From a virus (lineage: Duplodnaviria > Heunggongvirae > Uroviricota > Caudoviricetes): 16,069 nucleotides of DNA. The stretch is taken from IMG/VR virus record IMGVR_UViG_2526164651_000005; one strand, written 5' to 3'. The stretch's first letter is position 1, and every line of letters begins with the position of its first letter. The position numbers and the translations under genes were made by a program. The notes under the pieces are model-generated. The model searched no databases. It saw only the letters and a list, made by a program, of their open reading frames with translations, and had not been told where the DNA came from. Below are positions 1 to 14,165 of this stretch, in pieces.

Positions 1-1230
1 ATGAGCAGAGCACTTAACAAACTGAGCGATACACAGCTGAGGAAAATCAACGGCACACCCGCCCAAAAAACAGCCTTTCTTAATGACGGTGGAAACCTGA
101 GCGTCAGGCATTCAACCAGTGGCCTTTTAACCTGGTATTTCACTTACAGGGCCGGAACGGGAAGGGGGGCACCACCGGAACGCATTAAGCTGGGAAATTA
201 TCCTGATCTGAGCCTGAAATCAGCCAGGGAAAAAGCCGCCCAGTGTCGCGCATGGCTGGCAGAGGGGAAAAATCCACGTCATGAGCTTAATTACACCGTA
301 CAGGAAGCGTTAAAGCCGGTAACGGTTGGCGATGCGCTCACCTACTGGCTTGAGTCGTACGCAAAGGAAAACCGCGTGGATTATGCCGCCCTGAAAAAGC
401 GCCTTAATAATCACGTAATACAGCACATTGGTGCTATGCCGCTGGATAAATGCGAGCTACGGCACTGGCTGGCCTGTTTTGACCAGGTGGTAAAGCGAAC
501 GCCTGTTACTGCCGGATTCTTGCTACAGACGTGCAAACAGGCGCTTAAGTTCTGCCGGAGGCGGCGCTATGCAATCAGCAACGTTCTTGATGATATGAGT
601 GTGGCGGACGTTGGGAAAAAACCGGATATAAGTGAGCGTGTCTTAAGCACCAAAGAACTGGGCGAATTATTGCAGGCACTGGACAAAAAAATATTCTCCC
701 CCTACTACATCGCGTTAATCCGCCTCCTGATTGTGTTCGGATGCCGGACGGTAGAACTGAGGTTATCGGAGATCAGCGAGTGGGATTTTACCGAAATGCT
801 CTGGACCGTGCCGAAAGAACACAGCAAAACGAAGGTGGCAATATTCCGGCCCATACCGGAAGCAATACTGCCGTTCGTCACGCAGCTGGTGGAGCAGAAC
901 AGGCACACGGGCTTATTGCTGGGGGAAGTGAAACAGGAAACAAGCGTGTCGCAGTACGGCAGATTAGCGCACAGGAGGCTAAATCACCCTCACTGGTCAC
1001 TACATGACATCCGGCGCACCTTTACAACGATGCTGAACGATTTAGGCGTGGATCCTCACGTCGTGGAGCAGCTTACAGGCCACCAGATGCCAGGAATGCA
1101 GCGAGTTTATAATCATTCCCGTTATCTGGATGCTAAACGCAATGCGCTGGATATGTGGACGGAGCGGTTAGGGATACTGGCGGGAACACATGAAAACGTA
1201 ACCACGCTACCAGTAGCCAGAAGAAAATAA
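1..1230 (+). CDS. int: P4-family tyrosine integrase (site-specific recombinase), 409 aa
   Basis: N-terminal arm-binding-type region (LSDTQLRK...DGGNLSV...SGLLTWYFTYR) typical of P4/CP4-57-like integrases. C-terminal catalytic region has H-x-x-R (HDIRRTF) and the conserved Tyr context (YNHSRYLD). ATG sits exactly at the window edge, so the true start could lie upstream, but the N-terminus looks complete. Confidence 0.9.
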   Translation: MSRALNKLSDTQLRKINGTPAQKTAFLNDGGNLSVRHSTSGLLTWYFTYRAGTGRGAPPERIKLGNYPDLSLKSAREKAAQCRAWLAEGKNPRHELNYTVQEALKPVTVGDALTYWLESYAKENRVDYAALKKRLNNHVIQHIGAMPLDKCELRHWLACFDQVVKRTPVTAGFLLQTCKQALKFCRRRRYAISNVLDDMSVADVGKKPDISERVLSTKELGELLQALDKKIFSPYYIALIRLLIVFGCRTVELRLSEISEWDFTEMLWTVPKEHSKTKVAIFRPIPEAILPFVTQLVEQNRHTGLLLGEVKQETSVSQYGRLAHRRLNHPHWSLHDIRRTFTTMLNDLGVDPHVVEQLTGHQMPGMQRVYNHSRYLDAKRNALDMWTERLGILAGTHENVTTLPVARRK

Positions 1231-1247
1231 TTTTTTTCGTGTTTTTT

Positions 1248-1263
1248 CAGTATGCGCATACTG
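1248..1263. promoter_or_regulatory. Perfect 16-bp palindrome CAGTATGCGCATACTG just downstream of the int stop codon; candidate protein-binding site
   Basis: Exact dyad symmetry read directly from the sequence. The T-runs precede rather than follow it, so it is not a canonical intrinsic terminator on either strand. Confidence 0.3.
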
Positions 1264-1514
1264 GATATGCGAACAGATACAACGTGCAACAATGAGCAAC
1301 AATGCGGAACAACTACGAACAAGAGGCGAAAAAGCGTACAGATTTATAAGTAGCTGATTTTTAATGTATCACTGGTTTTTTATACACTAGCGAATCACTC
1401 TTTAAATAGCGAGAAAAAAGGCATGAAACAATATTTTATGCCTTTGTATTAACATGAATTTAAATGATTTTATCCTGATTATTCCTCGTTCTGTAAACCA
1501 TACGGCCTCAACAT

Positions 1515-1543
1515 TTGCCAACTCTGAATCATCCTGACACAAT
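1515..1543 (+). promoter_or_regulatory. Candidate sigma70 promoter for alpA (TTGCCA, 17-bp spacer, CACAAT)
   Basis: A -35/-10-like pair with 17-bp spacing about 60 bp upstream of the alpA start. Hexamers are imperfect; inference only. Confidence 0.25.
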
Positions 1544-1604
1544 CAGACACATCCCAACGCAATAGAACACGAAATAACTCTTTAAGAAACGAAAGGGGGC
1601 AATA

Positions 1605-1793
1605 GTGTTAAGCACTGATCGGTTTATACGTGAAAAAGAATGCGAAAAGCTAACAGGCCTTAGCCGCTCATGCCGCTACCGCCTGGAAAAGGCCGGACAA
1701 TTCCCATCACGTCGTAAACTTGGCGGTCGTTCCGTTGGCTGGTCTTTATCCGAGGTTCTGGCCTGGAAGGATAGCTGCAAGGCAGTTCATTAA
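1605..1793 (+). CDS. alpA: AlpA/Vis-family small DNA-binding regulator (excisionase-like transcriptional activator), 62 aa
   Basis: Helix-turn-helix core LTGLSRS..YRL...G.FP....LGGRSVGW..SEV..W matches the AlpA/P4-Vis family. GTG start at 1605 preceded by AAAGGGGG with about 5-nt spacing. Position directly after int is typical. Confidence 0.8.
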   Translation: MLSTDRFIREKECEKLTGLSRSCRYRLEKAGQFPSRRKLGGRSVGWSLSEVLAWKDSCKAVH

Positions 1794-13508: not shown

Positions 13509-13521
13509 TGAGGTCAGCAGC

Positions 13522-13803
13522 ATGACAGAAGCCGAAATACTGCGATTAATCCGCCGCGTCTCTGGAATCAGCCAGCAGGCTGACGAACAGACCACGCAGC
13601 CGGACAGCGTGACAGCCGAAAATTATGCGCGTGTTGTTGCTGAGGTGATGCGCCGTGATGGTATCCAGCTTAATGATGCGGATATGCGCGACATACGGAT
13701 CCGCGTTCTGGAAATGCTGGCCTACAATCGCCGCGTTGAACTGTATCGGGAGAAGGAGAAAATCACGTACCACTGGAAGAAGCCGGAGCGGTTACGGCGG
13801 TAA
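13522..13803 (+). CDS. Hypothetical protein, 93 aa (last ORF of the element)
   Basis: GAGGT about 10 nt upstream of the ATG. No recognisable family. Confidence 0.45.
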   Translation: MTEAEILRLIRRVSGISQQADEQTTQPDSVTAENYARVVAEVMRRDGIQLNDADMRDIRIRVLEMLAYNRRVELYREKEKITYHWKKPERLRR

Positions 13804-14052
13804 CTCACTGAGATTAAAGCAAAGCGCAAAATTGCGCTGGCTACATCCCTCACATCTGAGGACTGTTAACCAGCAGGCCGGAATATATTCACAAACTACG
13901 AAATTTTCGCAGTTTAATTACTCGTCAGCTTAATCGCTAACCCGCTCTGATATTTTCGGAAACCTCAATTTGAGGAAGTCGGCGAGGTAACTGTTTGATA
14001 TTCCCGATAGCGCAAAAATGCGCGGTCGGGCAGAATGACCACCACCTCAATC

Positions 14053-14088
14053 GTGACGGAGAGTGACAACCAGTGACACACCGTGACA
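14053..14088. repeat. Four GTGAC(A) motifs at exact 10-bp phasing (14053, 14063, 14073, 14083); candidate binding array for a recombination or regulatory protein
   Basis: Read directly from cGTGACggag aGTGACaacc aGTGACacac cGTGACaaaa. The helical-repeat spacing places all sites on one DNA face. Confidence 0.45.
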
Positions 14089-14140
14089 AAAAGACGGTTT
14101 AACCGTTCATTAAAAATCGACGTGATTTTGTGCTTTCCGG

Positions 14141-14165
14141 ATGACGTGGCCAACGTCATTTTTTA
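14141..14165 (+). terminator. Rho-independent terminator (ATGACGT-GGCCA-ACGTCAT followed by T6)
   Basis: Perfect 7-bp stem with a 5-nt loop and TTTTTT at 14160..14165. On the minus strand no U-tract follows, so it is orientation-specific to the plus strand. Confidence 0.6.

Follow-up and report, generated by a model that had tools for sequence, protein, structure and literature searches.

How can an element of about 14 kb, lying beside phoQ and resembling a phage satellite in its integration and replication genes, also carry a capsid and a terminase of its own? The question is raised by a 16,069-nucleotide stretch of viral DNA, hereafter the window, filed as IMG/VR record IMGVR_UViG_2526164651_000005. 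A preliminary description had proposed a capsid-forming phage-inducible chromosomal island (cf-PICI), and our analysis bears this out, the full set of head and packaging genes being near-identical to that of the island EcCIEDL933 and the attachment (att) site being the same. We regard it as highly likely that positions 1-14610 of the window belong to an integrated cf-PICI of ~14.8 kb (of which ~180 bp lie left of the window), which is of the EcCIEDL933 lineage and occupies the roxA-phoQ attB of Escherichia coli. EcCIEDL933 is the prototype cf-PICI, from E. coli O157:H7 EDL933 (Alqurainy et al., bioRxiv 10.1101/2022.09.08.507074), and work on its structure and on tail-less particles has followed (bioRxiv 10.1101/2025.02.11.637232; capsid PDB 9gyi). 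To judge from its sequence, the element is of an already known kind, an allelic variant of this founding cf-PICI. A satellite that has its own capsid and terminase and borrows only tails has previously been published, genetically dissected and solved by cryo-electron microscopy, and the window, which holds a variant of that type element at its type locus, adds little as a discovery. It offers a clean example of how modules are shuffled within a single cf-PICI lineage, with int/att and packaging constant and rep/ori and accessory genes differing, and it supplies the exact island boundaries, with an att core that overlaps the phoQ stop codon.

The identification is carried by the comparison with the prototype, which has been described as a 15.4-kb island that, besides int, alpA and rep, encodes capsid, protease, portal, connectors, HNH, TerS and TerL but no tail (bioRxiv 10.1101/2022.09.08.507074). 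In the complete EDL933 genome, roxA and phoQ enclose a 15.45-kb island whose genes are ordered as in ours. Ten core proteins were aligned end to end with EcCIEDL933 by tblastn, giving identities of 99.8% for the integrase (Int), 98.4% for AlpA, 97.7% for the capsid protein, 97.9% for the protease, 98.8% for the portal, 96.8% for the closure protein, 98.0% for the connector, 99.3% for HNH, 99.2% for TerS and 98.6% for TerL. Because these alignments are full length, the ten core genes are not pseudogenes. The two islands also have in common the roxA|phoQ attB, the att core GGACATATTT and the junction sequences, the att-proximal arm repeats, the order and content of the packaging genes, and three open reading frames (ORFs) encoding proteins of 60 aa, 93 aa and the DUF4222 family. 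The same integrase, the same attB and near-identical packaging proteins are what would be expected of a member of the EcCIEDL933 lineage.

The packaging operon runs uninterrupted on the plus strand from the capsid gene (starting at 7168) to the 93-aa ORF (ending at 13803), and its families were assigned from hidden Markov model scores above the curated Pfam and NCBIfam cutoffs. It begins with an HK97-fold major capsid protein (7168-8325; PF05065, E 5e-61; TIGR01554), which is ~98% identical to the chain in PDB 9gyi, the entry cited in the cf-PICI paper for the EcCIEDL933 capsid (T=4, 3.24 Å, 47.5 nm). There follow an HK97-family prohead serine protease of family S78 (8365-8937; PF04586; TIGR01543), the portal (8939-10150; PF04860, E 5e-90; TIGR01537), a head closure protein, called head-tail adaptor in the cf-PICI papers (10147-10485; PF05521; phrog_25), which matches the nuclear magnetic resonance structure PDB 2kz4 with an E of 6e-70, and a gp6-like head-tail connector (10482-10778; PF05135; TIGR01560). 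Downstream are an HNH endonuclease (10778-11218; PF01844), which, as in cos systems of the HK97 type, would be an accessory to packaging, and the conserved 60-aa ORF (11202-11384; phrog_3173), which is annotated in both EDL933 and E. coli RM6927 (NZ_CP074742.1). The operon ends with a P27-family TerS (11507-11863; PF05119; TIGR01558), TerL (11847-13508; TerL_ATPase and TerL_nuclease in Pfam) and the conserved 93-aa ORF (13522-13803; phrog_1561), which is 93.5% identical to its EDL933 counterpart. A G+C-rich candidate cos site lies at 11395-11455, between HNH/orf60 and terS, a position as in HK97; the DNA ends of cf-PICIs are cohesive according to the cf-PICI literature. In that literature, the order reported for proteobacterial cf-PICIs is capsid, protease, portal and head connectors, then hnh, terS and terL, and this is the order in the window, where all eight packaging genes are full length. 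The integrase, AlpA, head module, HNH, TerS and TerL listed in the preliminary description are all present and intact on the plus strand (Pfam, NCBIfam). As for its concern that the head genes might be pseudogenes or belong to unrelated families, they are full length against a functional prototype and their families are matched.

The rest of the island agrees with what has been published of cf-PICIs, which supports the cf-PICI reading. It measures ~14.78 kb from attL core to attR core, within the published range of ~10-18 kb, and it combines an integrase with alpA regulation (PF05930) and a replication module (D5_N/TIGR01613 and an iteron origin). As had been claimed, no window ORF matches a tail, baseplate, tape-measure or lysis family in Pfam or PHROG. 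Neither lysis genes nor a complete tail module are found inside or next to the island, whose neighbors are phoQ to the right and roxA, pepT and potABCD to the left.

Its boundaries were placed by aligning the empty site of strain K-12, where roxA and phoQ are 75 bp apart, with the window, EDL933 and RM6927. This comparison with an island-free strain, which the preliminary description had called for, puts the right junction at 14601-14610. A short direct repeat marks the junctions: attL (...ATGGACATATTTTATC), attR (...AAAGGACATATTTATTC) and attB (GGGCATATTTATTC). On its right side, the island truly ends with the attR core GGACATATTT at 14601-14610, which shares bases with the phoQ stop codon (14609-14611). 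The preliminary description had ended the element at 14165, and here it has to be corrected, since only a terminator-like hairpin with a T-run (14140-14165, plus strand), downstream of the packaging operon, is found there and the island extends 445 bp further. It was right to place the insertion beside phoQ: this chromosomal gene (14609-16069, minus strand; PhoQ_Sensor, HAMP, HisKA, HATPase_c) lies outside the island and flanks it, and the phoQ junction is 100% identical to K-12. Since a tRNA scan of the window found none, the island uses a non-tRNA attB. As for attL, it falls outside the window because the window begins at the int ATG, its very first base. In a contig of assembly GCA_049994695.1 (L006), which is 99.9% identical to window positions 1-11221 with two mismatches and one 9-bp gap, attL lies ~180 bp upstream, and the attL core is followed outward by roxA, pepT, potA, potB, potC, potD, cobB, nagK and lolE. 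Tail or lysis genes upstream of int, which would have turned the element into an ordinary prophage, are found neither in this copy, where the genes before int are all chromosomal, nor in RM6927 or EDL933.

The att-proximal arm at the right end (14466-14522, plus strand) holds the motif TTGTTCCACGTTGT at 14466-14479 and tandem GGTGTAGT(T/C)AAT repeats at 14499-14522, and both arm repeats recur in the attL-int interval of EDL933, RM6927 and L006. The tandem GGTGTAGT(T/C)AAT repeats are thus present on both arms of a reconstituted attP, and were observed upstream of int in L006 and, at 1340-1363, in the comparison locus L004. They are probably arm-type sites of the integrase. This is a tyrosine integrase (1-1230, plus strand; Arm-DNA-bind_3, Phage_int_M and Phage_integrase in Pfam) with an arm-binding N terminus of the P4/CP4-57 type, and exactly the same protein was found in many assemblies, in 70 blocks of the collection. 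Downstream lies alpA (1605-1793, plus strand; PF05930, E 5e-18; phrog_2790, "excisionase and transcriptional regulator"), the master activator in Gram-negative PICIs.

The replication module is where the window departs most clearly from the prototype. Its Rep is a replication initiator/superfamily 3 helicase of 583 aa (3692-5443, plus strand; D5_N, DUF5906, Pox_D5; phrog_864), in contrast to the 710-aa Rep of EcCIEDL933, which has a DUF927 domain and to which it is 53% identical in the first 225 aa only; the origins differ too. The Rep family not being that of EcCIEDL933, the window holds a mosaic variant and not the allele of the prototype. The protein had been called a P4-alpha-like primase, a label that holds for its helicase and C-terminal part: Rep matches TIGR01613, "phage/plasmid primase, P4 family", scoring 110.2 bits where the cutoff is 108.7. 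It does not hold for the N terminus, no primase catalytic domain being detected in residues 1-150. Rep is 91% identical (tblastn) to a protein of RM6927. Next to it is a replication origin (5457-5704) built of GGTAGA iterons in both orientations, as the preliminary description had seen. The motif occurs 15 times in the window, with 13 copies within 5460-5699, against 3.5 copies expected by chance, and none of 200 shuffles reached 15. From this anatomy, we infer that Rep replicates from the neighboring iterons. Within the origin, TAAGGTAGA is repeated in 4.6 tandem copies at 5664-5704. Opposite this stretch, L006 has a 9-bp gap, equal to one TAAGGTAGA unit, and a 9-bp offset in its gene coordinates arises on passing from the Rep gene to orf92, in the accessory region; this points to an iteron copy number that varies at the origin.

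Beyond the origin, an accessory or variable region (5750-6867, plus strand) comprises orf92, orf101, an SSB-N::PerC-C remnant and orf100b. EcCIEDL933 has SSB and PerC, in place of which the window has a 53-aa fusion and an extra 101-aa ORF. The latter, orf101 (6025-6330, plus strand; phrog_27268), is missing from EDL933 and occupies the place of SSB. The 53-aa ORF (6340-6501, plus strand) matches the N terminus of the prototype SSB over its first 25 residues and PerC (PF06069) at its C terminus, and looks like a deletion/fusion scar. The next gene, orf100b (6565-6867, plus strand), is bordered by an identical 23-nt terminator hairpin, CAGCCGGAGCAATCCGGCTTTTT, at 6523-6545 and 6886-6908, and these duplicated flanking terminators suggest a cassette-like accessory gene. 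PADLOC found no match to a defense system among nine small accessory ORFs, and none of the small ORFs has a transmembrane-like segment. The segments after alpA and after the last gene of the operon are also divergent from EcCIEDL933, and the islands differ in size (~14.8 kb vs. 15.45 kb). Relative to the prototype, this copy is a module mosaic in which Rep has been swapped, SSB/PerC rearranged and the segment after alpA varied.

Some of these observations weigh against so close an assignment to EcCIEDL933. At the DNA level, ~79% of the island aligns to the prototype, at 73-96% identity, and SSB is absent and PerC reduced to the 53-aa remnant. The cos site at 11395-11455 is a guess by analogy, made from its position, and the presence of attL in this copy is deduced from the 99.9% identical assembly. 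Moreover, this copy is known from sequence alone, and it is from the 97-99% identity of its proteins that we infer a life cycle like that of the prototype. Could the island then be a cf-PICI in structure but a crippled copy, rendered immobile, or mobilizable only by rescue, by its swapped Rep and origin and its loss of SSB/PerC? The unlikeness of Rep and origin to those of the prototype, the absence of SSB and the truncation of PerC all speak for it. However, other cf-PICIs at this site, such as that of RM6927, carry an intact copy of this Rep/DUF4222 module (91% identity), and a dense, matching iteron array adjoins Rep. Swapping of the rep module is, besides, usual among PICIs. Nor is the arrangement of the accessory region peculiar to this copy, as it recurs, 98% identical, in the genomes of other E. 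coli. Together with the 99.9% identical copy in an independent assembly and the 70 blocks that hold the integrase, which argue for a circulating element, this makes us consider a crippled copy very unlikely.

A different explanation for head genes without tails would be a degraded, immobile remnant of an HK97-like prophage, stripped of its modules for tail and lysis. The genes for head and packaging do belong to HK97 families, and the SSB::PerC remnant at 6340-6501 is a scar of rearrangement. Against this, the ten core genes show 97-99% identity over their full length to a copy proven functional by experiment, the int-alpA-rep backbone is of the PICI type and not lambdoid, and clean att cores are present at both sides. 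The architecture also persists in 410 of 5,426 complete E. coli genomes, and the nearest true phages have less than 40% capsid identity. We hold such a remnant to be extremely improbable, and on the same evidence reject both it and the reading of the element as a PICI-phage hybrid. The island does not look like a functional HK97-like temperate phage either, which would have tail, tape-measure and lysis genes in ~40 kb: no such genes are found in its 14.8 kb or in its flanks. A P4-like satellite, for its part, would lack structural genes of its own, carry Sid or Psu and rely on the cos/terminase of its helper, whereas capsid, portal and terminase are all encoded by this element itself, and Pfam and PHROG searches of the window ORFs gave no Sid or Psu family match.

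How widespread is this cf-PICI? At a coverage of at least 80%, the packaging module is found in 410 of 5,426 complete E. coli genomes and the whole window in 62. RM6927 and ~60 other complete E. coli genomes have an island at the same site, that of RM6927 sharing Rep (91%), orf92/orf93 (100%) and the packaging module (96-99%) with the window. It differs in its integrase, which is 95% identical, in having intact SSB and PerC, and in its other small early genes. Among phages, relatives are scarce. When the island was searched by megablast against 50,697 phage records, four records matched, with a query cover of at most 14% at 75-78% identity. The best capsid matches among phage records, at 57-65% identity, are small or fragmentary records, and ~40-kb phages have less than 40% capsid identity. 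This agrees with the reported distance of cf-PICI genes from phage genes (bioRxiv 10.1101/2022.09.08.507074). Two of these, vB_KppS-Ant, which came from an induced prophage, and Pasteurella Pmp8, measure only 15-16.5 kb (records LR881103.1, 16.5 kb, and OR544139.1, 15.3 kb), and probably represent cf-PICIs entered in the database as phages.

Known systems resemble the island in part. Classical Gram-negative PICIs, such as EcCICFT073 and EcCIED1a, have the same int-alpA-rep backbone and AlpA-dependent induction by helpers, but are without capsid, portal and terminase genes, and their Rpp redirects helper packaging into helper capsids. P4 shares the arm domain of its integrase, the C-terminal/helicase domain of P4-family primases in Rep and its dependence on a helper. 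In contrast to our island, it has no capsid or terminase genes and uses all P2 head and tail proteins, with Sid resizing the capsid. Phage HK97 and the gene transfer agent of Rhodobacter capsulatus (RcGTA) (1OHG, 6tb9/6tba) have an HK97-fold capsid, an S78 protease, an HK97-type portal and HNH-assisted cos packaging in common with it; the T=4 capsid, the absence of tail genes and the gene order set the window apart. Beyond the cf-PICIs, the RcGTA capsid (6tb9/6tba, E 3e-46) is the nearest solved capsid by sequence, ahead of any solved phage capsid.

The genetics of the prototype indicate how the island might work. EcCIEDL933 is induced by the helper phages HK106 and HK446 (bioRxiv 10.1101/2022.09.08.507074), and alpA is needed for its induction and transfer, a mutant abolishing induction (bioRxiv 10.1101/2022.09.08.507074). 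Mutants in each of its packaging genes lose island transfer and keep phage transfer, with the exception of the hypothetical gene 1792, for which there is only a severe reduction. EcCIEDL933 can do without the capsid genes of the helper, whereas it needs the helper's genes for the tail (major tail, tape measure), and tail mutants abolish both transfers. Its capsids are released without tails and are able to join free tails (bioRxiv 10.1101/2025.02.11.637232); the adaptor and connector fix tail specificity. In the island described here, a helper prophage would likewise trigger alpA expression, and AlpA would turn on Int-mediated excision and the rightward operons. The P4-family Rep/helicase would fire the GGTAGA iteron origin, and the capsid protein, protease and portal of the island would assemble into small T=4 capsids of ~47 nm. 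Its HNH, TerS and TerL would cut the island cos and package island DNA only, after which the closure/adaptor protein and the connector would complete a tail-less head, able to join helper siphovirus tails, of the HK106 type in the prototype. The adaptor and connector of this copy share 97-98% identity with their prototype counterparts, for which reason it probably prefers HK106-type tails. Its replication competence and its helper (inducer) specificity are presumptive, because Rep and origin differ from the prototype.

What might control the island is suggested by a repeated motif and by a pair of small genes on the minus strand. The motif TTGTTCCACGTTGT, phased at 10 bp, has nine matches in the window, against 1.8 expected, and none of 200 shuffles reached nine. 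Four tandem, 10-bp-phased copies of a TTGTTCCACGTTGT-like motif lie in the int-alpA spacer (1279-1322, minus strand), and two phased copies of TTGTTCCACGTTGT lie directly upstream of the packaging operon (6928-6951, plus strand). The motif is also found on both att arms, at 14466-14479 (plus strand) and in the attL-int spacer of the loci L004, L001 and L006. It is a candidate AlpA/Xis operator or Int arm-type site.

The minus-strand pair lies between alpA and the early genes. It consists of a 59-aa, Arc/ribbon-helix-helix (RHH)-like gene of the YlcI/YnfO type (2297-2476, minus strand), recognized in a PHROG search and followed by its own terminator with a 12-bp stem (2287-2261), and of a basic ORF of 58 aa (2063-2239, minus strand; phrog_21027), which is intact in EDL933 and RM6927 with 71% identity and an in-frame indel. 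The two may form a regulatory unit that is transcribed leftward, away from the early operon. A further hairpin with a T-run was seen on the minus strand at ~1975-1945. We tentatively raise the possibility, which we rate as rather unlikely, that the leftward pair is an unrecognized cf-PICI repressor/immunity unit, analogous to Stl of the Staphylococcus aureus pathogenicity islands, and that TTGTTCCACGTTGT is an AlpA operator coupling excision to the switching on of the packaging operon. The antisense RHH pair and the repeated candidate operator motif are in any case two small regulatory leads, testable in the EcCIEDL933 system.

On the opposite strand, the same region (1843-2600) contains a plus-strand ORF of 248 aa after alpA, annotated as "hypothetical protein" in EDL933, which is unlikely to be a real gene. 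Its substitutions fall on the three codon positions in the ratio 9/18/17, with no third-position bias, it has no family match in Pfam or PHROG searches, and the conserved minus-strand ORFs and terminators sit within it. We judge it probably non-coding for these reasons. The AT skew reverses across it. The small early genes proper (2606-3695, plus strand) encode an Icd-like/repressor-like ORF, two function-unassigned ORFs and DUF4222 (phrog_1743, 29966, 2512, 2196), the last at 3396-3695 (PF13973). Their calls are also supported by the annotation of the 99.9% identical copy.

Rfam found no family in the whole window at the gathering threshold, and permissive scans of 13800-14620 and 1231-2620 gave no credible family. 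Ahead of the terminator at 14140-14165, a cluster of GTGAC(A) repeats with ~10-bp spacing extends over 14040-14100; it is present in RM6927 and replaced in EDL933. A hydrophilic ORF of 58 aa at 14110-14286, without family match, is conserved in part in EDL933, and is distinct from a hydrophobic, 45-aa minus-strand frame near 14170-14307. Finally, within its region 1629367-1675087, EDL933 carries an unrelated lambdoid prophage, inserted between potC and potB, with the type III secretion system effector genes nleL, espN and espK; it lies a few kilobases from the cf-PICI site and is a separate element.

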